Shown one piece after another: positions 14,791-56,900 of a stretch of 64,000 nt of DNA. The stretch spans positions 1-64,000 of the forward strand of contig KZ538510.1 of the NCBI GenBank assembly GCA_000934665.2, given 5' to 3'. Each line of letters opens with the position of its first letter. Positions within the stretch are counted from its first letter, which is position 1. Below the pieces are notes generated by a model, which saw only the letters and a program-made list of their open reading frames with translations, made no database searches and had not been told where the DNA came from. Source of the DNA: Catajapyx aquilonaris (taxonomy: Eukaryota). The position numbers and the translations under genes are program-made.

Positions 14791-17700
14791 GCTGTCGTTT
14801 ACCTTGCAATCGCAGTCGTGTCGGTGTCCACCTCCCGTAAGTAACGACAGCTCATTGCTTTGCGGAAAAACGAAAGCGATTCCCATTCTAAGAGTGGTTT
14901 GTCCTTGCAGATGAGGTGGTTCGCCGAGATGCAGGATCCCCAAAGGTCGTATTCTGCTACTACACCAACTGGTCCGTATATAGGCAAGGAACGGCCAAGT
15001 TTGCACCTGAGAACATCAACCCTTATCTCTGCACTCATCTCATCTACGCTTTTGGTGGCATCAACAACGACTTCCAAGTCAGGCCGTTTGACAAATACCA
15101 AGACATTGAGAAAGGTAAGACGTTCACATCCCCTGAGAGAATCGTGTGAAAGTTGCTATTGTTATAACTTGGGTGAGAAAACTGGTGTCGTCAATCCCTC
15201 AGGTGGGTACGCCAAATTCAACGGATTGAAGACATACAACAAGGCTTTGAAGACGTTGCTAGCCATTGGTGGCTGGAATGAAGGCTCCAAGCGTTTCTCC
15301 CACCTGGTGGAGGAAGCGGATACTAGGAAGGACTTTGTTCGAAGCGCGATCCGGTTCCTGCGACAGTACAACTTCGACGGGCTAGATCTGGACTGGGAGT
15401 ATCCGGCCTTTAGAGACGGGGGTCGAAAGCAGGACCGAGAGAACTATGCCCTCTTGGTCAAGGTAGGCGATGCCCACTTCCCACACAACAACAATAATAA
15501 GGATAATAAAGAAAGGGAGGGAAAACGCTATCGAAAAGAGTGGCGATGTGAGCGTGAGAACATCACAAATCATGCGGCTCAAACCTGGGCGCGCATTTTG
15601 CATTGTGTGCCAATTATTACCAGGTGGAAACAAGGAGGACTCATGGTGTAATGGCAGCACACTGGGCTTTTTGTCCAGCGGTCCGAGTTCGAATCTCGGT
15701 GAGTCCTTCCAAATTCCGCACGGGTTTCATACAAGGTAACTACAAAAGGTCACATTTAATCATTATACTCGTAAACTTAATACATATATTATCATGTATA
15801 TCAGGATGTCCTGCATCATCCAGTTGAAGGTAAATTACCCGTCTTTGCAGCACAGGCTTAATATATGAAAGTAAGGACTAATGCTTATCCAAGGATATCA
15901 GACATCATCCCATTGTAATATTGATAATAAGAAGGTTAGATGTAATAAATAATAATTTCTTATAAGCAGAAAATGACGCTTTAGTGTTATTGGCATACTA
16001 TAGTAGTAGCCAGTAGTGTTTAGAAAAGGAGTTCTCAGTTGTTTGCTTGCCTCTAGAATGACTCGATCGATCGGTCATCGTGGGGGAGAGATAAGTGTGT
16101 CCCCCAGCAATGTTCCACAGACATAGCTTCCGGGAGCCAGAGCATCCGAACTCGCCGGTTAATTACTCGGAAGTCAAGCTGTCTAATTCGTATGGTCACA
16201 TTCTGGCCAATCGTTCGTGATCTTTCCGCCACCTCTCAATGGAATATTTCTTTAAACTGAAAGCAGAGTATAATTCCACTGGACTGCACATTTCCAGCTA
16301 TATGCACAGGATGATTACCATGTTGGTCCAATGCCAGGCTTGAGGAAAGAAACATTGTCTGGGATTTACTCATTATCCCCTAATCATGTCCATGAGTCTA
16401 CTTTGTGACTACATACTGTATAGGTATAGAAATCCTAATCTCGATCCAATCGAACCAAATTCTGTGAAAAATATTTTGAATTGTGGCTGTCGTGAGGTAT
16501 GTATTGGGAAATTCCATAGCAAATTTGCACCAACAGTGGCAACTGCAATATTTTCTGCTAGAATTCCCATTTCTGCACAATGAGTTATATTTCCAGAAAC
16601 AGGAACCAAAGGTCCCACTTTTCCACCTTTCTTCACGTGCTCAATGGAAGAAAATGAATGATTTCTGTGCAAACTTACCTTTAGATTATACTGTACAATT
16701 AAAAGCATCTTTACAGACACAATTTTCTCCTCCTTGTAGTAGCCTATACACCAACAGAAGATTGATAAAAATTCGCCTCTTCAAAATTCACACTTAAAGT
16801 TAAATAATATTGCTGTCCCCTTCACCCTTCTGCAGGTGAAACTGTGGCTATATTTACTTGATAATTACGTCGCATATGATTAAGGTGAAGATTATGCATA
16901 TAATTTGCTCTATCGGTGCGACACCCTGATCATATTATCAATGTCGAACACTACAAATGGAATAGAATTCCCATTTTCTAGGATCTACGAGATGCATTCG
17001 ACTCTGAGAGCCAGAAAAGTGGCCGCAACCGGTTAATTCTAACTATGGCAGTACCTGCCGGAATCGAATACATCGACAAAGGATACGATGTGTCGGCCCT
17101 CAACAGGTAGGGTTCCCAATCAACCAGTTAGAATCTGACACTGACACCATCCTTGCTCAGGTACTTGGATTACTTCAACCTGCTGAGCTACGACTACCAT
17201 TCGGCTTATGAGCCGGCAGTCAACCACCATGCCGCACTTAGGCCCACCACAAAGGCCCTGTCAGAGTACGACGTAGAAGATCAACTCAACATTGTAAGTC
17301 CGACCTATTTTGTGGTTCTCTTTCAATATTTTCGGCATCTTTTTCTCGTTTGTAGGAGTATACCATTGAGTACTATATACGAAAAGGAGCTGACAAGAGC
17401 AAGCTGGTTGTTGGAATTCCGACTTACGGTCGTTCATACACACTTTTTAATCCGGATGCTACCGATTTAGGATCACCTGCTGAAGGTCCAGGCGAAAAAG
17501 GAAAAGCTACTAAAGAGGCTGGCTATCTAGCCTATTATGAGGTAAGTGGATCGTGTTATGGGCTGACTCTTTCAACTAATCCTCTTGCCAATGAGAAAAG
17601 TTTTCTATTGATAAAGTTCATACTATAAAAGGACAGTAACATTCCCCTCATCCCCCTCAAATAAAAGGGGGAAAAAAACAAAGTCCAGCAAAAGTGATAT

Positions 17701-20700
17701 CCATTAAAGATTTCCCATCGATTTCCGGGAACTAGTGGAGTAAATGACACACTTGGGTCACCTCAACACCGAAGTTATTAGTGCGACCAATGGCTGCTAG
17801 TTATTCACACCAAATCAGAACTCATCAGTGAAAATGGCTGTATGCCTTCAATTCGGTCAAGGACAACGTCTCCTTTGATCAACGTTGAGAGTCTATGACT
17901 TTTCATTTCACATAATGAGCTCAGTGAAACCTCGTTACGATGCGGTTGAACTGGCGTCAGTAAGCGGGATAAACAAGGAGATGAAGGCGGAAATATTGCT
18001 ATGAATATTCCAGGAAAAGAGGGCAACGTCTTTCGAAACTCAATTCTGTCACATTTTGGACAACAAAGTTAACGTTGGCTTTTTTGCCTTCTTTTTTACG
18101 AGAATAGAAACCTTTCATGGTGGTCAAAATGGTCACTAAACCAGTGTCGTTAAAGAGGTGAATAACATTTTTGCTTTCATCTTTGATCCACTCCACCTGA
18201 TTGGGGGCAGGGAAGTTCCAACTCTCAATATCTCTATTATAAGTCAAATCGACCCTTAATATTTATTATTATTGATACAAATAATATTTATTAATTATTA
18301 GACATTAAACATGAATCAATAATAATAAACCAGAAAATAAACGATACCCACTCCTCGCAGTAGCTGCACAGTTAATTAGAGCATTGAGCACGTAGCCCTA
18401 ATCACCGAGCTTCAGTTTTCCAGCCTTAGACCATCCGTAACAAATCCGTGCTACAAACAACAAATATAGGATAATATCTCTTTGCATCGCGGAATGAAGC
18501 TTAGGGAAGTGATTTACAATCTTTACAAACACTTTCTCTGCGTAACAGGACTTCCTGAGATTGTTTCGCCCATTATGCGCTGTTCATTACGACTCTCGGT
18601 GAAAGTCAACATCTCGCTAAAGCAAGACATGAGCCGCGTGAATTCCTCTGCTCACTAATGATTACAACATCAAAAACGATTCTTCTCAGTTTTCAGCCAG
18701 TACAGAGAGCCCTCTCAAGCCTAACGTGATACCTACACTCTGTGCATGTGGTGGGCTAAATGTCTTCTAGTTAGAAAATAATGGAAGTGCAAAAGAAAGC
18801 ACATTTTATCACGATCGCCCCAATTCTATTCATTAGCAAACAGACACACACAAAACCTCACTTAGTAATCCTTTGTTAGTGTATTTACCACAATTAACAT
18901 TGCAGATATGTGACAATGTACTCAATCATGCTTGGCAAGTAACAAAGGAGTACCCTCAAGCACAAGGTCCGTATGCATTCAAAGGAAACCAGTGGGTAGG
19001 ATACGATGATGAAGACATCGCACGAGAAAAGGTAACCACGTTCTACGTGCACGACACGAATACAATTGCGGTAACATTAGACTTGAGTAATTCACTGATT
19101 GAATTAAGCAGGGTAAACAATGCAACTTTAGCCACCTCACTCTCCACTTGCGCCAATTGGAGCATCCTGGAGAGTTTGATGAATTTTTCCAGCTTGGATT
19201 CTCAAGTCTATAGTTACAGACCTCGTATTTGCATTAGTTCCTAGCCATGTATGCAAATAAAGTCACAAGTATAATTTCAACACAGGCCAAATTTGTACGA
19301 GAGGAGGGTCTTGGAGGAATTATGTTTTGGTCAATTGACAATGATGACTTTCGGGGCACTTGCCACCGACGTCCCTATCCACTCATCGAAGCTGCCAAGG
19401 AAGCGCTCTTCATGGGAGATGCCAAGCATAATTTGTGAGTGTCTTGGAATAACACTATAAATTAAGGTCCCACCAAAAATAAACACGTGTCCAAGATGCC
19501 AAATGTGTGGGTTTATTTACTACCACACAGTTACATGGCATCATATTGTGCGAGTGATAGCATAATTTTTTTTGAGACAGGTCGGGGCATTTGAGGGATG
19601 TCAAACTATAGTAGGCTAATAGTAATAAGTCTCCAACTTTTCAGAAATGAAGTGAGCACAAATTCAGTGAACAAGCCATCACGTCCTACAAGCAGCCTAT
19701 TCAGGCCTCCACAGTCCCGAAATCGGGGTACAACGTCGTCTTACAGTACTTCAGCTTCACGATCCATATTTTCTCGGCCTCGTCCATCTCGACTAACATC
19801 TCCCACTACTTCTACTACCACTACTACCACCACGCAACAGCCAAGAACGACCAGACCACGCTCTGGCCAAAGAAGAAAGAGGCCAACGCGTAGAAGACCA
19901 GGATCGAGAAGGAGAACAACTACTGCACCCACCACGACTACAACAACCTCTACTACTTCTACCACTACTACCACTACCACCCCTACACCGCCATTTAATC
20001 ATCTCAGCACTCCGGAACCACCTACAACTCCAGATCCAGGAACAGGTATAACTTAAATCAGTCCTTGCCTACTTATGACAATAATATTGTATGCATAAAA
20101 AATTCGCTGCCTGATTTTGGAATTTTTCAGATTTCGAGTGTAAGGATGAGGGATTCTACCCGCATCCACGTGACTGCAAAAAGTACTTCTGGTGTCTGGA
20201 CAGTGGCCCATCCAGCCTGGGCCTCATTGCACATCAGTTTACCTGCCCTTCTGGTACGCATACCTGCCCTTCGTTATTAAACCATTATTTTTATGATTAA
20301 ATTAATTACACTTCAGTTTCATATCCTATGGCATCTCCTTTCAGGCCTATATTTCAACAAAGGGACTGATTCGTGTGACTACAGCCGTAATGTGGTATGT
20401 CGACAGCCCACAACAACCACAACGACGACATCAAAACCAACAGTGACAACTACTACACGCTCTCCCATCACCCTGAGGACCAGACCTCCCACAACCACCA
20501 CCACCACTACCACCACTACAACTACCCCACCTCCACCCCCACCTCCGGAAGAAGAGGAAGACTACGAATACTACGACGACTACAGCGATGAAGAGGGCGA
20601 TGGCGAAAACCCAGCCACTCTGAAGGAATTGGTTGATCTGATCAAACGGTTCGGAGGAATCGAAGAACTGGAGCGTTATTTGGAAGGTGCCAATCCGGAA

Positions 20701-23700
20701 TCCGGATCCTCCTTGTCTACTGACACCAGAAATAGGCTCAGCAAACTCCTGCCCGGACTGGGAACCACAACTGCGGCGCCAGCCAGTCAACCGGCTTACA
20801 GCAGAAGGTATTTATTTTCAACGTAATAAATGAAACACAGACTCTGAAGATAACGGTGGTCAAAAAATCAATTTTTAGATTACTATACACTTCTACATGG
20901 CTCTAGGCCAATACCAATAAGTTATACTGGGCGCTAATCTCTAGTTACAGTACAATTCAGCGTAATCAGCCGCAAAACCCGCAAGCCGATGCTTCCGAGG
21001 CCGAAATAAAAGAGGAGGCACCACCAAAACGAAATGGGCTTCCTTTCTCTAGGAGACCACAATATGTCACTCTTCAACGAAGCAGGTAGGTCTGAGCTGC
21101 ATTTCATAACACTGCTACATATTCATTATTATGAAAATTGTATTCGTGTATCAGCAGAGTTAATGTGATAATATTTGTCTTTGTCGTTAGGCCGACTGTG
21201 GTACAAGAGGATGCAGAATCGTCCATAGAGGAGGAGAGTTACGATGGCGACGTGCGTGGAGGAAGCATTTCTTCAAAACCGGTCCAATCACCAGAAAGGA
21301 AATATGTTACCATAAACAGGGTACGACCAAATGTACCCACAGAATCGGAGGAAGAGGACGGTCAGAGGAACCAAAGAACGGGAGTGGACTCGTACAATGA
21401 TCGGAGGTAATGGAGCACAGCTTTCTTCTTTAAATTTATGCCTGCTTAAGTAGTGCTAAAGCCCTAGTAAATTCTGAAAATGCTGCACTTTCATTGAAGA
21501 ACGGTTCGGTGCATAAACAGGTGAATCCCATTATAGTGTAAGATGGGAAAAGAAAACGGGGTCGTTCTCTAAATGGGAGGTTAAGAATTTGCGACGTGCC
21601 GGTCTGGCGGTTACTGAATATTGATGCCAATGTCCAAAAATGTACCGCTGAGAGGAAAATTGACAGTACTGAATGTCCTATCTCTACTAAAAATACCGTA
21701 ACATAAATAGAAAATAGTAACCATCTGATATATTATTTACATATAATTTTTCAGGTACGTTACCATCCAAAGACAGAGACCTTCCACAACACCAAGTGCC
21801 GAAGATGATTATGAGGACGAAGAAGAAGTAAGTGTTTCACGCAACTAGAGTATAAAAGAAGAAAAATCAATCATCACAGACCGTAACTGTATGGTCTGGT
21901 CCATGCTTTCACGAGATGAGTAGGTCTACCGGTAATTGAAAAGCCTGTGCGGTGGTAGCTTGACCAGCATCATAACGAGCTTGCCTGGGTTTGGCCAAAT
22001 CGAAAACGTGGCCATCAAGCAGCAGGCGGCATAAAGAGAAGCTTGGAATAATCATCGAGGGGATGATTATCTCCTATACCAGCCAGATGAGTTTCACTTT
22101 ACTATCGATTGACACTGCCTATCGCCGAGGCGCATCGAGTCCAGAGAGGCTATAAAATCTCAGCGATTTCCAACACTATACTAGTCATGTCAACAACATT
22201 TTTCGAGCAACTTTGTAAAAGCGAATGTTGTCAGCGAGATTGTACGAGTAGAGAAGTGCTAGGTTATTTTGAGGGGAGAATGTAAAAGGTGGTGTAAAAG
22301 GACTAGGCTATTCCCAAAGTCATTTGGCGGGTATTAGCTCACGATGATGGACTTTATTTTCCGAAGTTTAAGAGTGGAGGGATGTGACGAACAGAAGAGC
22401 CGTTTGAGCACATTGCCTTCGTTTTATGTCGACTTTCGCCACATTTACACATACTAAAGGGAAGAGACTTCGCCACACTGTTACAAAAGCTATAAATGCA
22501 TCTTCTTTCAGCCCGTCCCTACAACGACTACTACAACTACCAGTACCACCACGGCTCGTCCGGTGCGAATCAGGCCACGACAACGTCACCGTCCTCGACC
22601 TACCACACCTAGACCGTTGACCCTGCGAACCACAACCGTCTTCTCTCCGGAGCCACCAACTACTCAAGCGCCAGTACGCATTCGGGCACGGACCAGGGGC
22701 CCAGCCGTACGTCGACGGCCCACTGCTGTTTCCAGACATGCCAACTCCTTCGTTAGGAGGCAGGGTGAAGAGGCAACATCCACAACTGCTGCCCCTGCAC
22801 CAGTCCAAGATGATGTGGAGTCTCCTCAAGAGCTGGTGGTTGTTACCACTAGCACCACTAGATCGGCTCGACGATTCAGCCCTTCCGCGAGGGCATCTAC
22901 CAGAAGGGTGTCCACTCCAACTGCAACCGAACCGGTAACTACTACCAGAAGAGTACCGAGCACCACAGTGTTGGTGAGTACCACCCGCAAGGTGTCCACC
23001 AGCACTAGTCCGGCCCAGAGAGATCCAGATGTGATTTCGTCAGCGTCGTCGGCAGCGGCGAGTACTCCAACCGCCTATGAATACGACGATGAATACGATT
23101 TGTCCGAAGAGGAAGCCGTGAGTCGGGTGTTGGCGACAGAAAGTGTCAAAGAGGAGGAAGTGACCGCGCCATATGGCACCCTTCTGGACGGCGAAATACA
23201 AGTCGGATCATTCGCATCATTGGCCAGCTCACTGGACACTACACCTAGGGCTATCCCTCTGCGAACCACTTCCCGAGTTATCCCATTCCAGTCCACCACA
23301 AGAGTTGTCCCACTACAGACCACAACTCGAGTGGTCCCACTACAGACCACATCACGAATAGTCCCACTACAGACCACGTCTCGACTTGTGCCAGTACAAA
23401 CAACCCCGAGGATCATCCCTCTTCAGACCACCTCAAGAGTTGCCTCCCGAGGCGATCGCGTGTTGTCGTCTCGAGAAGACTCAAACGAACTGTCCGGCGA
23501 CGACGAAGACGACATTGTGACTACTACAGGTCCTGCCCTGCGCAAACCCACCTACAGACCGACCAGCAGTACTATCAGAAGTACCCTCAGGCCAACTGCT
23601 AGTCTTCCACGAGCATTCAGCAGGTCACCCCTTCGAAGACCTACACCCACCAGCACCACCCGTCGCACCACAACCATCGCTGTCGACGACTACTACGACG

Positions 23701-23957
23701 ACTATGAAGACCCCATCCAATATGCCCTCTCTTTGGTACCTCTTTCGGACAAAGTGTCGGTCATGCCTGATGGAGAAATCGCCTGCTTGGACCGTGGTAC
23801 TTTTCCACATCCTCAATCTTGCCGAAGATTCATTCATTGCGCCAGAATGGAGGATGGCAATATTCGAGGATGGGCCTACACTTGCCCCAAACGTCTGGTG
23901 TTTGATCCCGTGGGAGGCATTTGCAACTGGTCAGGTGGATATACCTGCAACGAATGA
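14791..23957 (+). CDS. Cht6: Group VI (Cht6-like) chitinase: signal peptide, GH18, CBM14, Ser/Thr/Pro-rich linker, C-terminal CBM14; start exon uncertain
   Basis: Phase-consistent GT-AG exons: 14791-14836, 14911-15114, 15203-15462, 16982-17106, 17161-17293, 17356-17541, 18906-19031, 19286-19434, 19645-20045, 20131-20253, 20345-20807, 20945-21085, 21191-21406, 21755-21827, 22512-23957. Motifs: CYYTNWSVYR, KTLLAIGGW, catalytic FDGLDLDWEYP, SYDYH, GGIMFWSIDNDD; CBM14s FECKDEGFYPHPRDCKKYFWC...C and CLDRGTFPHPQSCRRFIHC...C. One phase-compatible start candidate is ATG|gtaaat at 14036-14038 (unverified). Gene symbol is from architecture and recalled similarity. Confidence 0.9.
15637..15707 (+). ncRNA. 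tRNA-Gln-scaffold cloverleaf, copy A (chitinase intron), aberrant anticodon loop CTTTTTG
   Basis: GGACTCA-TG-GTGT AATGGCA GCAC-A-CTGGG CTTTTTG TCCAG-CGGT-CCGAG TTCGAAT CTCGG-TGAGTCC-T. All four stems pair; A and B boxes present; internal T5 run. Confidence 0.75.
23238..23441 (+). repeat. Coding 27-bp tandem repeat (9-aa unit TTxRxxPLQ, about 7.5 copies)
   Basis: TTPRAIPLR TTSRVIPFQ STTRVVPLQ TTTRVVPLQ TTSRIVPLQ TTSRLVPVQ TTPRIIPLQ TTSRV in the last chitinase exon. Confidence 0.9.
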
Positions 23958-27798: not shown

Positions 27799-28101
27799 AG
27801 TTATAATTAATTATAATTCATACACCGTTATCAGCCATCGGCTCTTTAGGGGGGAAGTTTGTTTTGCCTGGAACTCTTTGCTTTCATTTTACTGTGCTCT
27901 TTGGGATAGGATAGGGACGGAAGGAAGCGGCTGTGGCCTATTAATTACGGAAGCAACTCCGGAATTTTCCTGGAAGGACCGTGGGAAACCACAGAAAACC
28001 ACGGTCAGAGTTGCCAGCCCCGGGATTCGAACCCAGGACCTCCCGATTAGCAGTCGGACCGAGAGTCGGACGCCTTATCCACTATGCCAACCTGCTTCGG
28101 T
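27799..28101 (-). mobile_element. tRNA-derived SINE, family 2, full-length
   Basis: Minus-strand head with A box TGGCATAGTGG and B box GGTTCGAATCC; AT-rich tail; 15-bp TSD ATATTGAACAGTAAT at 27784-27798 and 28102-28116. Confidence 0.9.

Positions 28102-30392: not shown

Positions 30393-30427
<35 letters not shown>
30070..30427 (+). mobile_element. tRNA-derived SINE, family 1, full-length copy with (ATT)n tail
   Basis: A-box-like TGGTGCTGCGG, B box GGTTCGATCC, (ATT)n tail; 16-bp TSD TACTCGTATAACATGG at 30054-30069 and 30428-30443. Confidence 0.92.
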
Positions 30428-39847: not shown

Positions 39848-40324
39848 TTTGGTTCATTACATGAGTTTCTTCTTATACGAACAAAATGGACCGTGTCACT
39901 CTTCAGTGCTGCGCTCTCTATCACACTTTTAACATTGTTTTCACTCTGCTCATCGCTGCTCATGAGCCATAGCACGTTCATTCATTTTTCTGAACTGCAG
40001 CAGACACATGGGCATGATGCCCATGACACGGGGTTTCTGATAAAAGTTGCTGTATTTTCCCGCTTGTGCCATATCGTGACCACGTGTTACCCAGGTATGG
40101 CGTTCAGTTATGCCAAAGCTTATGTCTATTATTTGTCTGGATATATGTTAACTTAACCAGTGCACAACTATGTCGTATGTTCCTCTCAGTTAAGTATTCC
40201 TTAATATAATGGAAGCAATTATTCCGCAGACAGAGAATGTTTTAATTCGTGGTCAACAAACAGAAGTTATTTTCTCATGAAATAAATGCATTTATAACAA
40301 GAGTTGGACGTCACTTGGCTTATA

Positions 40325-40397
40325 GGTCCTATAGTGTTAATGGAGAGCACTCTGGACCCACGGTCCAGAAGTCCGAGTTCGAATCTCGGTGGGACCG
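40325..40397 (+). ncRNA. tRNA-Gln-scaffold cloverleaf, copy B (just 3' of the LRR gene), aberrant anticodon loop CCCACGG
   Basis: GGTCCTA-TA-GTGT TAATGGAGA GCAC-T-CTGGA CCCACGG TCCAG-AAGT-CCGAG TTCGAAT CTCGG-TGGGACC-G. All stems pair; lacks U33. Confidence 0.75.
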
Positions 40398-41261
40398 TAA
40401 GATGTGACCAACTATATACTTATAGAGGTAGGCTATAATGTCTCATAATCGAACTAGTATTTAAACAAATAGCACTTTATAAGAGGAATCCTATCCTTGT
40501 AACTTGTACTCCCTTCATGAGGAAGGACCATATAAATAAATATATTGCAACTGATGAAACCAAACCTTCTCTCAGATAGCGTTCTTGACATTTTATATCC
40601 TCACCTCTCTGGTGTAATAAAAAACAAACAAGAAGAGTCTGAGCCTTCAAGACAGCAGTGACTGGCGGCTTAGAAGCGCTTCGTAGAAGAGTGTTACTCG
40701 CAGGGCTTTTTGTGCCTTCCTGTAAGTTTTGAAAAACTTTCCTTCGAGAATGTTGACTCATCTTTATTGCATTTCTAATGTATCTGGCAGAAAAATATTA
40801 ATTTTGTTTTCTAGGGGAATATGCGATTCTTAGCAGTAGACTTATATAGAAATGGAAATGTTTTCCCTAAATACCGTAGGCCTATTGGATTTTTCTATCT
40901 TCCATGTAAATCTCCAATACAGATTGAATGACAAAAATAATTATGATAGTAGAAAAGACAAAATTATCTATCGCCTGAAATGATTGCCTTCAGCGTAAAA
41001 TTATTACAGGTGACGGAAATTAAGTTTTAAATAAGTTATTGCGGACATTTTCAGCTATTGATTAACGTTTTTAAAGCCATGCAAGGAAATATCTTTTTCT
41101 TCTGCGCCTATGCTATTATCACAATCAACCCAGAGAACGAGTGTCACGGACCCGCGGAAAACTCATCAAGACAGGTGGAGTACGGTATACAATCATACCA
41201 GTGTCTATTTATGTGCAGAAATATTTGCGTCATTTACGTGGTAGGCTACCATAAACAACTA

Positions 41262-47900: not shown

Positions 47901-50900
47901 ACCTGCCATGCATATAACTCCTTTACCCCCTGATTTTTTGCTTGCCTGTGAACCTTGAACCGGAAAACCACAGAATCCCGAAAATCCAGCTTAGCCTAAG
48001 GCATGGCTGGAAATAGCCATGCAAATAAAATAAAATATCAAATTGGCTTTCATGTACAGGTGTGTGGGGCAGGGAATGGGTGGGAGGGGCATGGAGAGTG
48101 CATGGTGGCAGACAACTTGATGAGATGCAATGCTGTAACCAGCAAACCGGTGTTCCCTACTCTCACTCTTACTATAGGCCAGACAGTAGGGAGAAAGGGA
48201 AACAATAAGAATGGGAACGCCTTGCAGATGAAGAACATTAAGCTTGAACTAGTATATCATTTCACTCCTTGTTACTAGAGAAGTGTAAAATCACTGCTAC
48301 AAGCATCATACTGGTAGTACTTACATGCCCTCCCTCATAGGCTTCAAGCGGTCCCGAATCACGCGAAAGTTTGGCCTCAGCTCTGGTGGCTCCAACCAGC
48401 AGTCTTTCATTGTGTCTAACAGGCACTGGAATTTTGGTGGCAGCGTGTTGTACTCTTTCAGTATCTCAATGTTGGGCCGGAACGGTTCTCTTCCAATGGT
48501 TGGTCCCATCCGCACCATGTCCACAATATCTGTTGAAGTCGAGGAAGTAAGACACTCTGATTGTACCACCAAAAGATAATGAAATGACTATGTGACTGCA
48601 AAAAGGTCACTGACAGAAACCTCATAAAGTTCACATAATCTTTATGATAAGTCTCTTTGCTATAGAAACCATGTTCAGAAGAAGTGTTGCACATCAATAT
48701 TTGTTTGTATTTTGTCACTCTCTAAGTTCACTCACTACCAATATGACCAACTACCTTTTGGGTCTAATCCGCACGATCCATACGGGCCTCTTCGTCCCAC
48801 TATCTCGTACAGTATGACCCCAAAAGCATACACATCCCCCTTCTGGGTACCCCGCACTAAGTTAGGATTCCGGAGCAGTTCTGGTGCCTTCCATAATTGA
48901 TCTGAGGGAAGTAGTAAGCATTCGCCTTTTAATGTACAGTAATTTTCTAATCACGCATACATAACTTGCGGCCTCATAGGACAACACTAATGTCACTCAC
49001 TTTGATAGTAGTGGTGAGGGCCATCTAGGCCAGGCTCTACTGACTGACGCAGCTCATGCAGTCCAAAATCAGTAATCTGTAGAATCCAGCGACTAGTCAC
49101 TACGCAGTTAGAAGACTTCAGGTTGCCATGGACGCCCAAATCAGTGTCATGCAGAAACGTCATACCCTGAAATCAATGTGAGGGTTAAAACAGCACAAAT
49201 AACTCCCTGAAGAGCGAGGTTGAAGGAAGAGGTCAAATTTCGCCTTTCACTAACTGCTTCCATTTGACATGAGGCAGACAAATATTTTCCTCTCCATCAG
49301 TGTTCGCCTTCGGAACAATTCCATCATTCTTAAATTTGTTTATGTCTGAGCCGTGACTGTCCAATGAACTTGTCACAGCTACAGTTAATCGGGTGCAAGG
49401 CTGGGTGTGTGCGTGTGAGTGGGGGGGGGGGGGNNNNNNNNNNNNNNNNNNNNNNNNNNNNNNNNNNNNNNNNNNNNNNNNNNNNNNNNNNNNNNNNNNN
49501 NNNNNNNNNNNNNNNNNNNNNNNNNNNNNNNNNNNNNNNNNNNNNNNNNNNNNNNNNNNNNNNNNNNNNNNNNNNNNNNNNNNNNNNNNNNNNNNNNNNN
49601 NNNNNNNNNNNNNNNNNNNNNNNNNNNNNNNNNNNNNNNNNNNNNNNNNNNNNNNNNNNNNNNNNNNNNNNNNNNNNNNNNNNNNNNNNNNNNNNNNNNN
49701 NNNNNNNNNNNNNNNNNNNNNNNNNNNNNNNNNNNNNNNNNNNNNNNNNNNNNNNNNNNNNNNNNNNNNNNNNNNCCCCCCCCCCCCCCCCCAATGGCTA
49801 CACAGCAATGTAAACAGCCACTCTATCTGCTCTGTAATTACGTTACACAATTTGCCACACGCCAAATATTTCTTTCGCCTCAAATTAACTCTCGACAGCA
49901 TCCTTTTGATGCCTGTTTTTGCCGACGTGCCAATCTCGGTTTATAGACTGCCGATTGCGCGAAAATGATTCCATCACTTCCCTGGTCAACGCCTTGATTA
50001 TGGTATTCCCCGCACCCCCCACCTTTCCTAGAGCGTCACGAACGGTGTTGGTGTAAGGGAGTAAGAGGGTGTGGGTGGGGGAGGGGGCATACCTGCAATC
50101 AAGTGGGTCAGCCAAGGTAATTGACCAGCAGCCAAGAGGAAAGACAACAAAAAAACAGGAAGAAAACGGGGAAGTCCAAAGCTTAATACTGATTCACGGA
50201 AAAAAAAATTGTCACGTGGTCCCACAAACAACGTTACATAACCGGCTTATCCCAGAAATTACAATCTCCCCCCCCCCCCTCCCCCCTCCTCGATCTCTGA
50301 AGAGATGGAGCCTGGTGCCAGCCACGATATCCCTGCCACCTCTGGTTGGGTGAGACAGACAAGCCATCCTGGGAAGGCTTTACAGTAGCAATACCTGCAT
50401 ACGAAGTCAGATTGGCCACTTACATTGAGGCTGCCCTTGGCACAGTATTCCGTGATGATCCGGATCCGGGTGGGTTCCACTAGGGCACCCAGGAAGGAGT
50501 TGACGTTGTCGTGTCTCAGCTCTCTCATCAGTCTCATCTCTTTCATAGTCTCCCTGGAGATGTCCTTCTTCCTGCTGTAGAGCAGGTCCTTGACTCGGAC
50601 CAACGATCCCCGGTACGTTGCTCTCCGGGCAAACACCTGGTCCATGCACCGCGATTCTAGAGACACCATGCTGACCAGGCTGCCCTGTATTACAGGATTC
50701 AGGGGAAAAAGCAACATCATCAGTCAGAATTGGCCGACTTGTAAGACAGGGCCTGCCTGGAGGGTGATACCTGTCCCATACCACGAGTACTGTACAGTAC
50801 ATAGTAAAATATGATGCTGATGTACTTTACTTTAAAGGGGTTAAGGACTGGTCAGCCAATGATGCCGATGTACTGTACAGTACATGCATTCCCAATACAT

Positions 50901-53900
50901 AACCACATTTCCTAATTACGAGTATTTTGATATGATACAATGGGCCATGAATAAATAAATAATAAATAAATAGTAGACCCTAATTGAAATCTAGGGGAAA
51001 ACTTCTAACTTCCGTCAATTTCAGCTACATGATCAATTCAAGCCAAGCCATTCGACGACGATGCTTCTCATAGAACTATACTATTCTCTCGAGCGTAGCC
51101 TAATTAGGTTATGACATACTGTAGGTACCTCTTTTACGTAGCAGTTTAATTTCGGCGAATACCGGCAGCTAAAGCGCATCACAGGAAGTCCCACGCGCTC
51201 TCATCATGATTCCAAAGTAAATTACACTTACAGTATAACATCGCTCTGCAATCACGGCTCGGATAAAATTTAGGCAAAGGATCGCGATTAATTCGCACAT
51301 TATACTATACCATTATTATATGTGATTTTATGCAACTGCTTCACATGTACGTATATGTTACCTAGTGATGCTGCTATCTTAAGTAGGATGTTTTCAAGAG
51401 ATAGTGCAGGGCTCAAAATAGCATAACCTTACTTGGGGTGCAATGTTTTCCTTTCAATAGCACTCATGCATGCACAATAGGCCTATTATTTTATCGGCGA
51501 AATTTTTCCATACAGTCTCGGTTTTTCTAAAAAGAGTCCAAAGATCCATGACCTGTTGTAAAAACAGTGGTGTCAATAATCGACCTCGTGCAACTGTGCT
51601 TGTCCATATAAGAACTTATGACACCCTTAAAAAGGGAAACACGATTATATTGTTGATATAGCAGACTGGCAAATACGTGTAACAAGTTTTGTAAATAATA
51701 TTTATATATGTTCGCACGCTATACAAAGAGCACTGGCTACTATAAGTCCTTTATCGATTAAGAGCATCGACATTAATTACTTCACAGTATCAGGCTAGTA
51801 TCTATCATCAGGGATCCTTAAGCCGCGGCCATTGGGCGACATCCCTGGGACATGAATAGTGTTTTCACTGGTTATACTGTACAGTTTCTTTATTCTACAA
51901 GTACTTCCCCTAAAATGTGCAACTTCGAGTGTGCAACTTCGTAGGAAATAAACTGAAATATTCATAAATTTAATCAATTTTATTCGCCTGCTTATTTTCC
52001 CATGAACTCCTTGTTATTCTTAGGGAGAATGATGAGGGGGTTGAAGGTGGGGAGAGGAGGAAGGAAGGAAGGACGATATATCTCTCAACCCACACGCAAG
52101 TCAAGTCCCGCTGTTTACATAACGTTCTGAGTTAATTTTACACAAATGCCCCGAGCATGTTTACTGACGATACTCATACAGTACGTTATGTTTCATTCTG
52201 AGCACAATTACTGCTCTCAATTAATGACTTCCTCTGAAAAATTAGAGAATCCCTAACCTGTATAACATTGCTTTTCGCCATAACCATTTCTGTATAGCAT
52301 TGTCGCCATTTACTCTAGTAACCACCTGCACCAAGCCCGATCTGAAGTAATTATATCCATTCAATGCAAAAATAGACAGGTTAGAATAGGAAATTTCATC
52401 GCGAAGGTTTTTTTAAAACACCTAACACTCGAGGTAAAGGGGGTGGTCGCAGGTTACTTGACTATCATAAAAGGGGGTCGCGACCCGAAAAAGGTTGGGA
52501 ACCACTGGGTTAGAGCAATTTTACAAGTTGTGCCTACTTGTGTGTCAAAGCAGTAGTGTATTGTATACCTGCTCGCTATAAAAAGTCCTCGCCCATTTGA
52601 AGGCTACCATATCGCCCGGCACGGCGCTGTTGGGATATTTGTCGTGATTCACCATTCGAGCTCGGGCATTGCTTATCGTGCCCAAAGAAATGTTCCCAAT
52701 ACTCCACTAGTCAGGTTTATCCAGCTCGCCTACACAAACAGTCTGCGATCCGATTTGAAGCGCATGCTGCTCAACAGTATATATAGTATATATAGTATAT
52801 AGTAATATTACGCTAAAGGAAATCCAGCAATACGTCCGAAACGTATGTAGTACAGAGCAATTTCAAACTTTTAAAAAACAACACATAATAAACACAGCAC
52901 TCGATACGCCTGTCCACGTAATGTGAGCCACGAATGTCCAGCAATTAAACCTCGCAACGGCCATTTTATCAATAATAAAAATACGTCACCGTACCAATCA
53001 GGCTATGGCATTGTGCGATTTGATATATCAACGTGTGCTCACCGTTAGGCCTACCTTGCTGTAAACAACCTTCCCCCATTACATTAATATTACGTGCACA
53101 CTTGAATAAGCTAAATATGTAGTGCGCATTTGAATGGTGCGTTGACCCTCTAGCCCAATGCTATTGAAAAGGGTCAGGCGACCCCACATACACGCCCACC
53201 CTTGCCCGTAAGCTTCGTCGCTAACGGCAACGTTTGTAACTGTACGCAGTATAGTCTAAATCAAGTCGAGTTTTGAACTCGAGGTAAATACTACGCTCAC
53301 TACTTGAGAAGGTCGATTTCGTTTCCCATAAGTGTTTAGCTTTTGCCATGGCAACTCTGAATATAGGCTTGTTATGAACTGTACGGTACAGCTTCCGGAT
53401 AAAAGGTCCTAATCAAGACTCGACAAACAACTTTTTGTTCGCTCGCTAGACCAACACAGCAGGTGGGTACCTGGAATTTGCATACAATTAGACTATTTCA
53501 TCCTTCTATGAATCTTCCCACTATCCCACTGCGTCGCCCAGCCTGATGCTTCATTACACACAAGCAGCTCGTCATTTACATGTATACCGTATATATGCTT
53601 TCTCTGAATACGCCGTGGACTGTATATGTTACATAAATCATACTTTCAGCGAAATTCCATGCTACAAGTACATGATTTCTAAAGCTCTCACCGACAGACT
53701 GGAAGATCTTCATGCGCATTATTTAAAAAAAAAAAACTTTCCAGGTACTCAAGGACACGAGTTCCTGATACAGTATAAACCAACCGAGATTTTTCCTGAT
53801 TTCCTCGTAGGCCTACAACATGTTTACTGCATTTCTCATAACTGCACCACATAAATCGGAACGTTGCTACCCCTCAAATGTTATCCAGTATCATTTCGGT

Positions 53901-56900
53901 GACTAATTTCATCATCCGCGTAGTTGTCTTGCATCGCCTACGTACAGTATATCCCGCCACAAAATGTGTCGCAACATAATATGTAAATTCCATCTTTACC
54001 TTACTGGCCGAATTAGGGTCTCTTCCGCCAATGTTGACCAAGTCCCTCGGATCGATCTTCCAGAGTAACCCTTCGATCTCCTGCTCGATCTTCCACTTCC
54101 GGTACAGGGAGATGGCAACCACCGTGGCGCAGAAGAGAAGTCCTCCCAGGGTGCCCGCAGCTATTACCCCAGCAGTCTGCTTGTTCCGGGTATTCCGACA
54201 CTTCTTCCCGTTGAATCCGCACATGGGCTCGTCTTCTGGCTTGTGTCTTTTCGGCCAATCCACCTCCAGAGTCGGACGGAGTTGCTGGCAAGAAACGGGC
54301 ACGTCCGTATCACTAGTTATATACTCGCTAAGAGCAGAGCACTACTTGTGAGATATTTCCAGAAGGCGTTTGAGAGGGCAATCAGTCGCTGTTAATTATT
54401 AATTACAAACTGGGTCATGATAAGGCACACTGAGAGTCGAACTCAGGATTATCATCAAACCAGAAGGCTACCATTACACAAAGTCCTAACCAAGTCTGGC
54501 AATAACTGGGGCTAGCCTTGGACGAGAAGCGCAACAAGAACATGAGGATGAGGGACATTTCGCAAATTTTTTTGACGGCCAAGAACGCCCAAGAACGTCT
54601 TAATTTTGACATCTGCGAGTCACGCGATGCCACACATGTGGACAATGTCACTGGCGCAAACTATGCCGCCTCTACTCCGCTAACAAGCTCCACAAATCAT
54701 TGAAATATATGGGCCTTCTCCTAAAGCTCTCACGATGACAAGAAAACCAGTCCGCCGGCTGGAGAAAGGAAGGCAATTTCTACGTAACGTGCCCTTGCTC
54801 CTTATTAGCAACCGTTCCCATTTGGGTTCTATTTTCCCGCTATGGACGTCAGCAAAAAAAAAAAAAAAAAAAAGAAAAGAAAAAAAAAAACTGAACACAT
54901 TACAGGTAGGCGTGAAGGCCCCACCGAGAGTCGAACTCGGACCGCTGGATTTTCAACTAATCCAGTGTGCTGCCGTTACACCACCGGACCTTCGTTGCCT
55001 ACGTTTTAACTCTAAGTACAATATCGTGTACCGCACTGTGCGGATGGCTGACTTAACACACAATAACTGAAACAGCTTACCGGCAGGGCCGTTCCGTCCG
55101 TTTTCCAGAACTGTGCTACTGGGATCATGTGGTAGTTGCACAAGAATGTGTAGGAATCTGTGCTGTAGGTGTAGTTGTGAGCTTTTAGAGACACTAGAGT
55201 GAAGTTGCCCTCGGAGTCGCCATTCTCATCCATGCGGATGTCGGCACCGGTGATACCTGTCAGAATCAGTCGTTTACAAAAACCCCAATCAATACACATG
55301 CTGAAACTGTCGTATTTTGTTGTCTGGAAATTGCATGAATGAGTCAAGTTTAATGAAAATCGCGTCATAACATTAAGTAATTTCCTGCCGCACATAAGTG
55401 ACAATCAAACAAGCGGCTGGCCACCCAGTCCTGCACATGCGCCTCCATCGCAAAATCTCATAAACACAAATAAGATGGCACATGCGCAGGAGGTGGAGTC
55501 CAGATGTGCTGCTTTCATTTTCCTTGTATGCTAATACTCTCTAACAAACTCCGAACAAGCGCCATCAAAGATTATACTCATCAGAAAGAACTATAGTTTG
55601 GTAGCAAAATCGAGCAATATCTGAGCAAGTGACTCATACAGTACAAGACTCCATGCTGCGAATTACCTAACATGCATCTTCCTCAAAAATCTGCAATGTA
55701 AGCACCAAGCAGACCCACGCACACAAAAAGCCACACTTACTCTTATACGTCATGTTGCTAATCTCCTTCAAGATGAGAGTGCCATTTCGAGCCAGCGATT
55801 GCACTATTGTATCGTTGTCCGCACCGTACCGCTGCATCAGTCTGTCCAGGGCATGAGCGTACAGGAACACCGAATCGTATAAGTTAGCCGCATAGATACT
55901 CACAAACTGCAAAAAAGAAAAAGAAAAAAAGAACGGGGTTCTTGATTACGTAACGATTGTATATTTAGCAGGAATTCTACACTTTTGATCGTTGTGCTCT
56001 TTGCAAAACTTGGGGCTTCCCAGATTATGCAGTCATTCAAGTCGTCCTTCACATTCCGGTTATGTATATGTCTTTCCTCTCTCAGTCTGCAGGCACGCGA
56101 GCAAATACAATCGACATCCGTCACAAAAACCTGAGTCTAGTGCAACGCATCCAATATTTTGGCCCCCGTACAACTCTGGAATATTTGCAACCTTGCCAAA
56201 GTTGGCTCCCACGACTAGTCAAGTGAGGATAATAAAAAAAAAGTCGATGTTGTAATCGCGACGTCAATGTCTTCCTAACAAACGTGCCAGGTTGCAAATC
56301 AAGGGCAACCGGTGTGAATGACTGTAGCTTCAGTTAAAGTGACATAACCTGCATTCGCAATATACATTGTATGAATATGCTAATAGACGAAACACTATAA
56401 ATTACATATATCTACGGTACTAAAGATATAGCATATTTCATCAGTCTGTAGCTATGTATAGAATACCTTATAACGCCCACGCCTGCTGTATCATAGAAAG
56501 GAGTTTAGACTTCCTTACACTAGTCTTGGCAGCTTGTTCGTGTATATTTTGGACTGTAATTACTACATGGAACATGTTAATTAGGAGGCAAAAGTATTCA
56601 GTAAGTATTCCGCATGACGGTCATGTTTGACAATGAGATGAAACTACGTATATGAATGTTGAGCGAATAAGTCAGACAGTCCCATAGAATACTGTCTTCA
56701 ACAGTTATCTAATTCACTAGTATTAATAGGCTCAGTCCAGAATATTTAATGCGGTAACTGACATATATAGGGCTTGTTTTAAAGAGATTACATCAAAGCG
56801 AGTTATGTGACATTATTCCCCAAACCGCTCTAATCCTTTCCCTATTATGACTTACTGCGGCGATTAATCTCGTCAGAGCCACCCCAAGATCACGCTGGGT

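Follow-up and report, generated by a model that had tools for sequence, protein, structure and literature searches.

Three tRNA-Gln-type cloverleafs and a decayed relative

The window analysed here, a stretch of 64,000 nucleotides from Catajapyx aquilonaris, holds three cloverleafs built on a tRNA-Gln body and lying in or near genes for a GH18 chitinase, an LRR protein and a Gyc76C-like guanylate cyclase, together with a decayed fourth member of the same family. The features are as follows (Rfam scores are for RF00005, whose gathering score for tRNA calls is 29 bits).

15637..15707, plus strand: copy 1, tRNA-Gln-type cloverleaf with loop CTTTTTG (Rfam 57.3 bits, model R1 92.7 bits)
40325..40397, plus strand: copy 2, tRNA-Gln-type cloverleaf with loop CCCACGG (Rfam 49.8 bits, R1 85.9 bits)
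54916..54990, minus strand: copy 3, tRNA-Gln-type cloverleaf with an 11-nt loop, TTAGTTGAAAA (Rfam 40.6 bits, R1 80.1 bits)
54854..54890, minus strand: T-rich run of 37 nt (35 T, 2 C), starting 26 nt past copy 3
54422..54486, minus strand: decayed fourth family member (R1 17.8 bits, E 0.012 with filters off; alignment)

The coordinates that an earlier note gave for the three cloverleafs are right, and all three are detected by both RF00005 and ARAGORN. Comparison with reference tRNA-Gln genes confirms that the body is that of a eukaryotic tRNA-Gln, and the A-box and B-box positions are intact, as in working tRNA-Gln genes. The D, anticodon and T stems are the same in all three copies, as had been claimed, bar a single A>G that yields a G-U pair and keeps the pairing, and their common T arm occurs three times in the window against 0.01 occurrences expected.

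Each copy had been placed on the sense strand of a different gene, which holds for the two intronic copies. Copy 1 lies in sense inside a GH18 chitinase intron, 175 nt past the exon end and 5' splice site at 15462 (exons from Pfam GH18), and copy 3, also in sense, lies within the Gyc76C-like guanylate cyclase gene, in an intron whose 5' splice site is about 90 nt upstream (exons by tblastn). For copy 2, which sits about 480 nt downstream of the stop codon (39847) of the last recognisable ORF of the LRR gene and 44 nt downstream of the first AATAAA (40281), inclusion in the LRR transcript is only putative. One copy per gene is not what is found, since the intron of copy 3 also holds the relic, about 430 nt further downstream on the same strand, with copy 3's TTCGACT T-loop variant, a partly deleted anticodon arm and a broken acceptor stem. 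As for transcription signals, copy 1 has a T5 run inside its loop and then no T4 for 766 nt downstream, a distance reached by 2% of random places, while the first T4 of copy 2 comes at +194; of the three copies, just copy 3 has a nearby run that resembles a Pol III terminator, the T-rich run past its end. Given the T5 of copy 1 and the distant T4 of copies 1 and 2, a full-length RNA from these two would need host transcription.

The family is small and locally clustered, with three good copies and the relic within 40 kb. In a contig set of about 256 million letters, just 11 contig pieces in run X1 and 10 in run X4 resemble copy 1 at 80% or more, contrary to the large family that had been suggested, and the window copies are therefore a local cluster rather than a sample of a big dispersed family. 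At least three further genomic copies outside the window have an altered loop, and a copy lacking part of the D arm also exists there. Since decayed members exist (the relic and this D-arm-deleted copy), the earlier note saw just the well-kept end of a spectrum.

These elements are not ordinary SINEs, and the reported absence of a SINE body, tail and target duplication stands: likeness between copies stops at the tRNA borders, no shared flanks were found within ±150 nt or ±1.5 kb, and neither an A-rich tail nor a direct repeat was found at the ends of copies 1–3. A tRNA-derived SINE or other mobile family, comparable to Sm-alpha of Schistosoma mansoni, does of course have precedents. In S. mansoni 2,342 of 2,368 tRNA-Gln-TTG predictions were classed as SINEs, and Sm-alpha is likewise tRNA-Gln-derived and present in more than one copy (PMC2770079); arthropod tRNA-based expansions are also known, for example of tRNA-Ala in a centipede (PMC4244043). 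The window family, however, has neither a shared body nor a tail nor a target duplication, and its copy number is tiny, so that this reading is close to refuted and nothing favours the minimal mobile family proposed before.

Rewritten loops on a preserved body

All 16 reference tRNA-Gln genes (retrieved from other organisms by patterns that left the loop unconstrained) carry the anticodon loop CTTTGAA or CTCTGAA, against none of the three window copies. Their loops CTTTTTG, CCCACGG and TTAGTTGAAAA differ just as described earlier, and can indeed extend the anticodon stem, by 1, 2 and 2 pairs in copies 1, 2 and 3; the chance of at least one added pair is 0.37 and of at least two 0.137, giving a joint value of about 0.007 for the three copies. 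The copy 2 loop can close to leave a 7-bp stem and a 3-nt loop, and that of copy 3 is readable as a 7-bp stem with the loop AGTTGAA, in which TTG is still present. Loop lengths vary, being 7, 7 and 11 in the window and 7, 10 and 15 in other genomic copies. Copies 1–3 cannot read codons: their loops are rewritten and partly closed.

It is very improbable that these are remolded decoders, that is, working tRNAs of new identity on a Gln body with the anticodons TTT, CAC and TTG, even though ARAGORN gives each copy an anticodon (TTT for copy 1, CAC for copy 2 and TTG for copy 3, the last called Gln-ttg) and one other genomic copy has the well-formed loop TTCCAAA. Position 37 is a pyrimidine in copy 1, which also contains a T5; position 33 is C in copy 2, where tRNAs almost universally have U33; the loop of copy 3 is 11 nt long; and terminators are not near copies 1 and 2. 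In addition, nuclear tRNA genes that have switched amino-acid class reportedly turn out to be pseudogenes in nearly every case (PMC4981973).

Somewhat better, but still quite improbable, is the idea that the loops are site-specific scars, left when a Dada-like transposon or a nuclease acting at the anticodon region recently inserted into and left, or cut, many tRNA-Gln copies, so that the genes would be intact except for a rewritten local stretch whose length varies. Variable loop lengths and intact bodies speak for this, and Dada elements, whose hosts include water flea, oyster, polychaete and fish, enter tRNA genes either around the anticodon or at the A box, with target duplications of 6–7 bp and, in some cases, replacement of the target sequence (PMC3706591, PMC8869645). 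However, no transposon, terminal repeat or 6–7 bp duplication was found in or beside any loop of copies 1–3, tRNA-Gln is not among the Dada targets named in the available parts of these papers, which leave excision footprints unmentioned, and neither stem extension nor flank helices (see below) are predicted.

The contrast between loop and body is pronounced. Measured from the nearest reference, the bodies of copies 1, 2 and 3 differ at 8/65, 8/66 and 8/65 positions and the loops at 3/7, 6/7 and 8/11, with loop-versus-body Fisher p values of 0.067, 1.1e-4 and 8e-5 (combined 1.5e-7), which bears out the earlier claim of lost decoding with retained shape. Standard pairs are kept in 21/21, 21/21 and 20/21 cases (62/63 in total, the exception being one acceptor-stem mismatch in copy 3), when 8 random hits would leave 17–18 of 21 on average and the probability of 21/21 is 0.003–0.017. 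In copy 1 both sides of the acceptor pairs 3:70 and 5:68 have changed, and only one of the eight body changes of copy 2 is located in a stem. Within the 35-position core (T arm, D stem, anticodon stem), copies 1 and 3 carry one change each and copy 2 none; for 8 random hits, the probability of no hits there is 0.0012 and that of at most one is 0.015. The 17-nt T arm is changed at 0, 0 and 1 positions in copies 1–3. Pair-preserving stem changes are mostly G-U and the reverse strand scores 10–12 bits against 86–93 bits, and the constraint therefore reads as acting on RNA of the given strand.

This constraint is one that we infer from three copies set against references from other organisms. Part of the eight body differences may be the ordinary tRNA-Gln sequence of this species (copies 1 and 3 have D-loop and position-26 states in common), and the differences may have arisen while the genes still decoded. 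The changes in copy 3 are compatible with drift, and there is an ascertainment effect in that the copies came to notice through good folding.

Could DNA rather than RNA be what matters? The copies might be TFIIIC-binding A and B boxes which, inside Pol II genes, act as boundaries of chromatin or as sites where Pol III factors land, with the RNA irrelevant, and both the box positions, which are as in working tRNA-Gln, and the nearly unchanged T arms would suit this idea, as does the insulator function raised as a secondary role of remolded tRNA genes (PMC4981973). Nevertheless, we think it improbable, as acceptor and anticodon pairing is not needed for binding, yet has been kept with both-side and G-U changes, and closed loops and flank helices are left unexplained.

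Flank helices and the dying-gene alternative

In all three copies the flanks can pair with each other and lengthen the acceptor helix (supported by a clamp-hairpin test and by folding).

15622..15636, plus strand: 5' flank of copy 1, partner 15707–15721; 3 bp, 4x4 internal loop, at least 4 bp
15708..15721, plus strand: 3' flank of copy 1, partner 15622–15636; discriminator base 15707 also paired
40310..40324, plus strand: 5' flank of copy 2, partner 40397–40411; 4–5 bp, internal loop, 5 bp
40398..40411, plus strand: 3' flank of copy 2, partner 40310–40324
54991..55005, minus strand: 5' flank of copy 3, partner 54902–54916; 3 bp, small internal loop, 6 bp
54902..54915, minus strand: 3' flank of copy 3, partner 54991–55005

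At L=15, 20 and 25, the test gave p values of 0.009, 0.010 and 0.027 for copy 1, 0.036, 0.095 and 0.044 for copy 2, and 0.002, 0.013 and 0.036 for copy 3; the helix of copy 1 is retained in the minimum-energy fold. Thus 3/3 window copies have the extension (p 0.003–0.037) against 0/16 canonical tRNA-Gln genes at p<0.1, by a test designed post hoc, after the flanks had been inspected. By our reading of the folds there are about 27 extension pairs, all but one Watson-Crick, which is consistent with a process making palindromes at the DNA level no less than with RNA selection. A paired leader and trailer would be expected to hinder simple release by RNase P and RNase Z, and this counts against the reading that we prefer (selected, non-decoding RNAs), as does the decay seen in the family.

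The main rival, which we regard as possible but on balance unlikely, is that these are functionless pseudogenes: a dying local tRNA-Gln cluster under fast birth-and-death turnover, its loops disabled by clustered multi-base changes, its body differences older than inactivation, and both helices lengthened by template switching in replication, so that stems stayed paired without selection. The relic, the D-arm-deleted copy, the small and local family, the lack of a nearby terminator in copies 1 and 2 and the T5 within copy 1 are all as this would have it. So is the extension of both anticodon and acceptor stems by almost exclusively Watson-Crick pairs, absent from the 16 working tRNA-Gln genes. 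Moreover, tRNA genes in primates and flies copy and pseudogenise rapidly, and it is mostly in very young copies that the anticodon has changed (PMC4981973), and single template-switch events reportedly produce several compensatory changes along with longer stems and altered or inverted loops (PMC8794818). The window copies are like the alloacceptor-remolded genes and tRNA pseudogenes of animal genomes in being local duplicates that lost identity through anticodon-loop changes and include decayed members; the difference is that in remolding the anticodon itself changes, in very young copies (PMC4981973), whereas here 3–8 loop positions, length and closure are affected and 62 of 63 pairs persist. 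Stem extension, clustered loop changes and both-side stem changes are likewise listed as footprints of template-switch hairpins (PMC8794818, PMC5453318), which are a mutation mechanism rather than a kind of element, and whose descriptions in the available parts of these sources concern rRNA and the human genome rather than copies of tRNA genes.

Several points count against the pseudogene explanation. The same 7-nt loop must have been hit in 3/3 copies and in at least three others elsewhere, and for copy 2, whose loop differs at 6/7 positions, we could reconstruct no single hairpin-templated step that yields CCCACGG. Between human and chimp, 4778 candidate template-switch events stand against about 14.5 million base differences (the latter derived from 3.84 million being 26.4%), or some 3 per 10,000 in this one data set (PMC5453318). 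Several switches per 100-nt locus, with a T arm left unmutated, are unlikely without selection, and T-arm changes of 0, 0 and 1 are hard to obtain by drift; template switching protects neither the T loop nor the D stem, leaving the untouched T loop unexplained. That such events are so much rarer than point changes is one of the points in favour of selection.

Proposed tRNA-shaped RNAs that no longer decode

With loops changed beyond the body, stems (including both-side pair changes) kept beyond random expectation, and elements that are not ordinary SINEs, the non-decoding role proposed in the earlier note is therefore a fair inference. Our preferred version, to which we give a probability of about 0.4, is that the copies are tRNA-shaped non-decoding RNAs, still under selection and carried in host transcripts. 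The sense placement of copies 1 and 3 in introns, the terminator situation of copies 1 and 2, the flank helices that canonical tRNA-Gln genes lack and the GUT15 precedent (see below) also speak for it. DNA-level duplication of tRNA-Gln genes would have produced the small, clustered family, whose members would then have lost decoding and retained their shape because the RNA, not the anticodon, matters. Copies 1 and 2, and perhaps copy 3, would be transcribed within the host Pol II transcript and not as normal Pol III units, and the cloverleaf might be recognised by RNase P, RNase Z, the CCA-adding enzyme or other readers of the acceptor and T arm. This would give rise to a stable non-decoding RNA of tRNA-like form, or else the structure would act in cis within the host transcript. 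The 1–2 extra pairs that close the anticodon loop would exclude the RNA from translation, and the flank helices may delay or gate end processing.

Two known systems offer useful comparisons. mascRNA and the MEN-beta tRNA-like RNA are the 3'-terminal cloverleafs of MALAT1 and NEAT1, single conserved vertebrate loci; in these long non-coding RNAs an A-rich tract and a triple-helix module immediately precede the cloverleaf. Upstream of copy 2 neither was seen, copies 1 and 3 are intronic, and the window family is tRNA-Gln-derived and multi-copy; the likeness lies in a non-decoding cloverleaf, which in mascRNA and MEN-beta resides within a Pol II transcript and is read by tRNA-processing enzymes (see also PMC6152437). 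The Arabidopsis GUT15 tRNA-like RNA is intronic, derives from a Pol II transcript, is not Pol III-transcribable and is CCA-tailed, with a conserved T loop and a non-canonical anticodon arm (PMC6152437). It resembles the window copies as a tRNA-shaped sense element in an intron of a Pol II gene that is not a usable Pol III unit, with standard acceptor, D and T parts and a well-conserved T loop. In contrast, GUT15 RNA accumulates with a non-encoded CCA, while any RNA from the window copies is putative; its A box is altered, while theirs, like their B box, is as in working tRNA-Gln; and the available part of that paper describes no flank helices, which all window copies have (PMC6152437). The window also holds several tRNA-Gln-descended copies, each with its own loop, in an animal rather than a plant.

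The fourth copy, the flank helices, the T5 of copy 1 with no T4 to follow, and the small, local nature of the family are first given by this analysis. The three arthropod tRNA-Gln copies may either have been kept for another job or represent an unusual kind of dying gene.

The cloverleafs, their tRNA-Gln body and their genes

In the 64-kb window the Rfam tRNA model gives exactly three matches that pass its gathering score, and on re-extraction their sequences agree with those transcribed in the earlier note, with Rfam and ARAGORN placing them at the same coordinates.

15637-15707, + strand: copy 1, loop CTTTTTG; Rfam tRNA 57.3 bits, ARAGORN Lys-ttt
40325-40397, + strand: copy 2, loop CCCACGG; Rfam tRNA 49.8 bits, ARAGORN Val-cac
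54916-54990, - strand: copy 3, 11-nt loop; Rfam tRNA 40.6 bits, ARAGORN Gln-ttg

The T arm that copies 1-3 have in common occurs three times in the window, against 0.01 occurrences expected by chance. Reference tRNA genes were fetched by patterns built from the window copies, with the anticodon loop left free, and the metagenome scan returned seven loci, two of them eukaryote-type tRNA-Gln(UUG) on one contig and five of them Leu/Lys tRNAs, which have only the T arm in common with the window copies; no relative with an aberrant loop was found among the seven. Prokaryote genome records yielded 14 matches at 12 loci, every one a canonical eukaryote-type tRNA-Gln located in metagenome-assembled contigs. 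Across the body (the cloverleaf minus its anticodon loop), the window copies are identical at 57-58 of 65-66 positions to L003, the nearest fetched tRNA-Gln(UUG) reference, so the tRNA-Gln scaffold proposed from the sequence alone is a sound assignment. The loops are abnormal for such a scaffold, since all 16 references carry a canonical one (CTTTGAA in 10, CTCTGAA in six) and none of the three copies does, the 7-nt CT-YTG-AA loop of a working cytosolic tRNA-Gln being absent from each.

ARAGORN's fourth match, at 28012-28095 (-), is a separate, unrelated tRNA-derived element (28011-28096), which we rejected as a member of the family. It scores 25.2 bits with the Rfam tRNA model, under the gathering score of 29, and is called Glu-ctc (84 nt) by ARAGORN, as against GCT at the anticodon position in the Rfam alignment; the 7-nt word TCCGACT of its anticodon arm occurs twice, 12 nt apart, and a T4 run lies at +14.

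Three protein-coding genes, whose closest protein matches come from a scorpion and many insects, none of them close, surround the copies and mark the window as arthropod DNA.

About 14.8-24 kb, + strand: chitinase GH18 gene with a chitin-binding domain
37.5-39.8 kb, + strand: leucine-rich-repeat (LRR) gene
44.9-59.8 kb, - strand: Gyc76C-like receptor guanylate cyclase gene

Copy 1 starts 175 nt past the chitinase exon end at 15462 (AAG/GTAGGC), the next GH18 exon running from near 16982, and copy 3 lies about 90 nt past a GTAAGC donor in the guanylate cyclase gene, with tblastn-mapped exons on both sides, so both are placed in sense within an intron of a Pol II gene. Copy 2 is downstream of the last ORF of the LRR gene, about 480 nt past its stop codon and 44 nt past the first AATAAA, a position that could be 3' UTR, read-through RNA or intergenic DNA. 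Relative to the nearest gene, every copy has the sense orientation that had been reported; as evidence, three independent cases are weak. Very long Thr/Pro/Ser-rich (mucin-like) linker exons occupy 19600-23960 (+) of the chitinase gene, before its C-terminal CBM_14 chitin-binding domain, and an intron of the guanylate cyclase gene holds a run of N (an assembly gap, about 49430-49790) with poly-G/poly-C on either side, which is the source of artefactual 'inverted repeats' and X-filled ORFs.

The intron that holds copy 3 also contains, near its 3' end, a decayed fourth member of the family, the relic, which shares the strand of copy 3 and follows it at about 430 nt.

54422-54486, - strand: relic; 17.8 bits, E 0.012 with the family covariance model, filters off

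It has the TTCGACT T-loop variant of copy 3, part of its anticodon arm is lost and its acceptor stem is broken, from which it follows that the family does decay and that copies arise by local duplication. The second T-stem pair of the relic is T-A as against C-G in copy 3, and the two bases of that pair have each changed by a CpG-to-TpG/CpA transition, the CpGs concerned lying opposite one another in the stem, so paired CpG decay can mimic compensatory change; the CpG observed/expected ratio of the window is 0.77.

Several other repeats occur in the window. A near-perfect palindrome at 33729-33872 (72-nt arms, 96% complementary, with no spacer) matches the plant microRNA precursor MIR5512 at 70.6 bits, below the gathering score of 139, and is probably a foldback repeat or MITE-like hairpin. 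An inverted pair of a few-hundred-base repeat lies at 1375-1786 and 30070-30436, some 28 kb apart, with 101-nt and 69-nt arms at 94-96%, and long (TAA)n/(TAG)n microsatellites adjoin each copy of that repeat. The 69-nt inverted pair at 14246-14314 and 52439-52507 (96% complementary, 38 kb apart) is probably an unrelated short repeat family, with one arm 1.3 kb away from copy 1, the other 2.4 kb away from copy 3, and no consistent arrangement relative to them. About 1 kb downstream of copy 2, 59-nt direct repeats at 41292-41350 and 41734-41792 are 78% alike, each with a doubled GTGCGTCTTATA word.

Altered loops on a little-changed body

We aligned 19 sequences, the three copies and the 16 references, to the covariance model and counted differences from L003.

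Differences from L003 in body and anticodon loop, with one-sided Fisher p
Copy 1: body 8/65; loop 3/7; p 0.067
Copy 2: body 8/66; loop 6/7; p 1.1e-4
Copy 3: body 8/65; loop 8/11; p 8e-5

Combined over the three copies, the contrast of loop with body gives p 1.5e-7, a figure that is to be read with the references being tRNA-Gln genes of other organisms rather than of this species; the D-loop and position-26 states common to copies 1 and 3 may simply be this species' normal sequence. Standard pairs are kept at 21/21 in copies 1 and 2 and 20/21 in copy 3, with the proviso that good folding is why the copies were noticed. Eight random substitutions simulated on a reference body leave a mean of 17-18 pairs, and the full 21 in 0.3-1.7% of trials, varying with the transition bias. 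At acceptor pairs 3:70 and 5:68 of copy 1 both sides differ from the references; a single one of the eight body changes in copy 2 falls in a stem, where it leaves a G-U pair; and the one mismatch and two G-U changes of copy 3 are compatible with drift. The 35 positions of the D stem, anticodon stem and T arm show one change in copy 1, none in copy 2 and one in copy 3, and the model scores 86-93 bits on the given strands versus 10-12 bits on the reverse strands. Pairing can also run on from the anticodon stem into the loop, by 1 pair in copy 1 and by 2 in each of copies 2 and 3, where canonical loops add none; the chance of at least one added pair is 0.37 and of at least two 0.137, or about 0.007 jointly for the three copies.

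So many loop changes beside a near-untouched T arm, D stem and anticodon stem cannot have come from point mutation in a dead gene, which leaves two ways to the pattern, either one rare clustered event per copy in the same 7 nt, or constraint on the body after decoding was lost. The second is the one we favour, at a probability of roughly 40%: judging by the substitution pattern, copies 1-3 would be tRNA-shaped non-decoding RNAs, in which decoding has been given up and the body kept under constraint.

It is possible, if on the unlikely side, that these are functionless pseudogenes whose helices were lengthened by template switching, with no selection at all. In the parts of the literature available to us, tRNA genes turn over fast, anticodon changes being found mainly in copies that are very young and probably dead (PMC4981973), a picture that the decayed relic fits. 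Template switching during replication is reported there to make more than one compensatory change in one go, to extend stems and to alter or invert loops (PMC8794818), so that it would account both for Watson-Crick helices that have grown longer and for acceptor pairs changed on both sides. Such events are rare, however: the available part of one human-chimp comparison gives 4778 candidates versus about 14.5 million base differences, a total derived from 3.84 million being 26.4% (PMC5453318), which makes several per locus without a change in the T arm unlikely, and template switching gives the T loop no protection. Nor did we find a single-step derivation of the window loops from the canonical loop, for copy 2 by any single hairpin-templated step. 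Loop inversion, tried as a source, yields none of the three: reverse-complementing the canonical loop gives TTCAAAG, to which, among the matches listed, just one other genomic copy (TTCCAAA) comes near.

Two further explanations address the anticodon directly. Scars of an anticodon-targeting agent are quite improbable: Dada transposons do target the anticodon region in several tRNA genes, a water flea being among their hosts, but tRNA-Gln is not among the targets named in the available parts of those reports (PMC3706591, PMC8869645), and neither a Dada element nor a 6-7-bp target duplication is seen in the window loops. That the copies are remolded decoders is more improbable again, given the T5 and the pyrimidine at position 37 in copy 1, the C33 of copy 2 and the 11-nt loop of copy 3. 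A remolded pseudogene would be an intact young copy with the anticodon alone changed, and here the loops differ at 3/7, 6/7 and 8/11 positions and, in copy 3, in length.

Terminators and flank helices

The terminator pattern of a working gene, with T4 or more shortly downstream and none inside, is missing for copies 1 and 2. Copy 1 has T5 within its own anticodon loop and the next T4 on that strand at +766, a T4-free distance reached by only 2% of random window places, and the first T4 downstream of copy 2 is at +194, all of which makes these two copies poor Pol III units. Copy 3 is followed by a T-rich run of 37 nt from +26, the sole nearby T run among the three. In the non-decoding reading that we prefer, copies 1 and 2 would be made within the transcript of their host gene by Pol II.

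A TFIIIC-only (ETC-like) site carries TFIIIC on its B box without a Pol III product, and the A- and B-box positions of the copies are intact, so one could see them as TFIIIC-type DNA elements; such elements do not need stem pairing, however, and on the sequence pattern we regard this as improbable.

The 15-nt flanks on either side of the cloverleaf pair with one another in 3/3 copies, extending the acceptor helix around a small internal loop by 3 + at least 4 bp in copy 1, 4-5 + 5 bp in copy 2 and 3 + 6 bp in copy 3. Both flanks were folded about a fixed clamp and the energy compared with that of 4000 random flank pairs from the window, in a test on three copies that was devised post hoc, once the flanks had been inspected.

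Flank-helix p against 4000 random window flank pairs
15 nt: copy 1 0.009; copy 2 0.036; copy 3 0.002
20 nt: copy 1 0.010; copy 2 0.095; copy 3 0.013
25 nt: copy 1 0.027; copy 2 0.044; copy 3 0.036

None of the 16 canonical tRNA-Gln genes falls below 0.1 (p 0.12-0.84), and by the same test neither the relic nor the tRNA-like element at 28 kb (p 0.80) has a significant flank helix. Minimum-energy folds of 111-115-nt stretches retain the cloverleaf with longer acceptor and anticodon helices, and of about 27 extension pairs read from these folds all but one are Watson-Crick. The flank sequences are unlike between copies, so that it is the pairing alone that they have in common. No bulge-helix-bulge motif was seen in the flank helices by eye. 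Cleavage by RNase P and RNase Z is expected to be slower with paired leaders and trailers, and the flank helices may therefore gate end processing rather than help it. On the preferred reading, tRNA-handling factors would read the acceptor/T-arm half, with processing and perhaps an effect on the host gene as the outcome.

Family extent, known relatives and significance

Contigs of two DNA runs (X1 and X4, about 256 million letters each) were matched to copy 1 and its flanks at a likeness of at least 80%, which gave 11 and 10 contig pieces resembling copy 1, respectively, two of them being its own locus; most others match only the 3' half. A further run, X5, of unspecified kind, gave no match to the copy 1 stretch, which has no bearing on expression. 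Because some records are filtered, contigs collapse repeats and summed depth is not copy number, this is a rough bound, and it points to about ten loci, not hundreds, so the large family that the earlier note expected is not supported, and three good copies and a relic within 40 kb amount to a local cluster. Loops of other genomic copies are known from 30-letter contig ends, and the matches listed include one with TTCCAAA on a G-U-closed stem, one with TCTCAAGTGG, a closing pair changed on both sides and a D arm partly missing, one that is copy-1-like with 8 extra loop bases, and one whose loop has a T>C change and whose acceptor stem is of canonical type. Among the contig ends listed there is no canonical loop, and hence no canonical tRNA-Gln gene of this species.

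Could the copies belong to a SINE or other mobile family? In favour of such a view, tRNA-Gln-derived SINEs exist (PMC2770079) and tRNA expansions occur in arthropods (PMC4244043), to go by the available parts of those papers. A tRNA-derived SINE would have a tRNA-unrelated body and 3' tail common to its copies, target-site duplications and many dispersed copies, features that the window loci seem to be without: likeness between loci ends at the borders of the 71-75-nt cloverleaf, both within +-150 nt and within +-1.5 kb, and a border repeat search over the three loci found no shared body, A-rich tail or direct repeats at the ends, the flanks being complementary instead. The absence of a SINE body, tail or TSD noted at the outset therefore stands, and the mobile explanation is close to refuted.

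The better comparison is with Pol II-derived tRNA-like RNAs such as mascRNA, which is released by RNase P cleavage followed by CCA addition to the small RNA. In the MALAT1/mascRNA module the tRNA-like element lies directly downstream of an A-rich tract and a U-rich triple-helix element; by eye, there is none of either in the 100 nt upstream of any copy, and copy 2, AATAAA notwithstanding, was rejected as a poly(A)-site/triple-helix module of this sort. GUT15 of Arabidopsis is the closest described case, and the available part of its report (PMC6152437) has it as an intronic tRNA-like RNA that comes from a Pol II transcript, that Pol III cannot transcribe and that bears a CCA tail; its T loop is conserved, its anticodon arm non-canonical, and it inhibits splicing of its host intron. 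GUT15 resembles copies 1 and 3 in being sense and intronic in a Pol II gene, and the window copies in combining a standard acceptor/T part with a non-canonical anticodon arm (Rfam, folds, pair counts); it differs in that its CCA-tailed product is known, whereas the window copies are known from sequence, the only hints of a host-made RNA, indirect ones, being the T5 of copy 1 and the terminator distance of copies 1 and 2. By analogy, then, the loci would work most like GUT15 and mascRNA, which is a likeness and not a membership.

The pattern itself is real, with two features not noted before, and a function for it would rest on three copies. A larger proposal, which we offer tentatively and as the doubtful one, is that of a small arthropod family of hairpin-clamped, tRNA-Gln-derived modules in protein-coding genes, their cloverleaf and T arm selected, their anticodon arm deliberately closed and variable, with locus-specific flank helices, made by Pol II and acting via tRNA-handling enzymes, whether as small RNAs that are stable and do not decode or as signals for gated processing or decay of the host transcript. 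If true, such a family would be without precedent among animals outside the MALAT1/NEAT1 type, and its flank clamps would be a first for elements of this sort; word searches of open-access main text turned up no arthropod copies of tRNA-Gln descent that combine closed, rewritten loops with flank helices particular to each locus.

To our knowledge, only a handful of non-decoding tRNA-shaped RNAs exist in eukaryotes (mascRNA, the MEN-beta tRNA-like RNA and the GUT15 tRNA-like RNA), and we know of no documented stepwise origin of such elements from tRNA genes. These loci may catch the passage from tRNA gene to non-decoding element in progress, with the path visible as a clear tRNA-Gln body, decoding lost, pairing kept, loops closed, flank helices gained and a decayed sister adjoining. 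Should selection not be confirmed, they would be a clean natural case in which to ask whether hairpin-templated mutation can keep and lengthen RNA-like stems in dead genes, which bears on every covariation-based claim of RNA function; should it be confirmed, they would offer an animal system for studying how tRNA-handling enzymes treat a cloverleaf that is part of a pre-mRNA.
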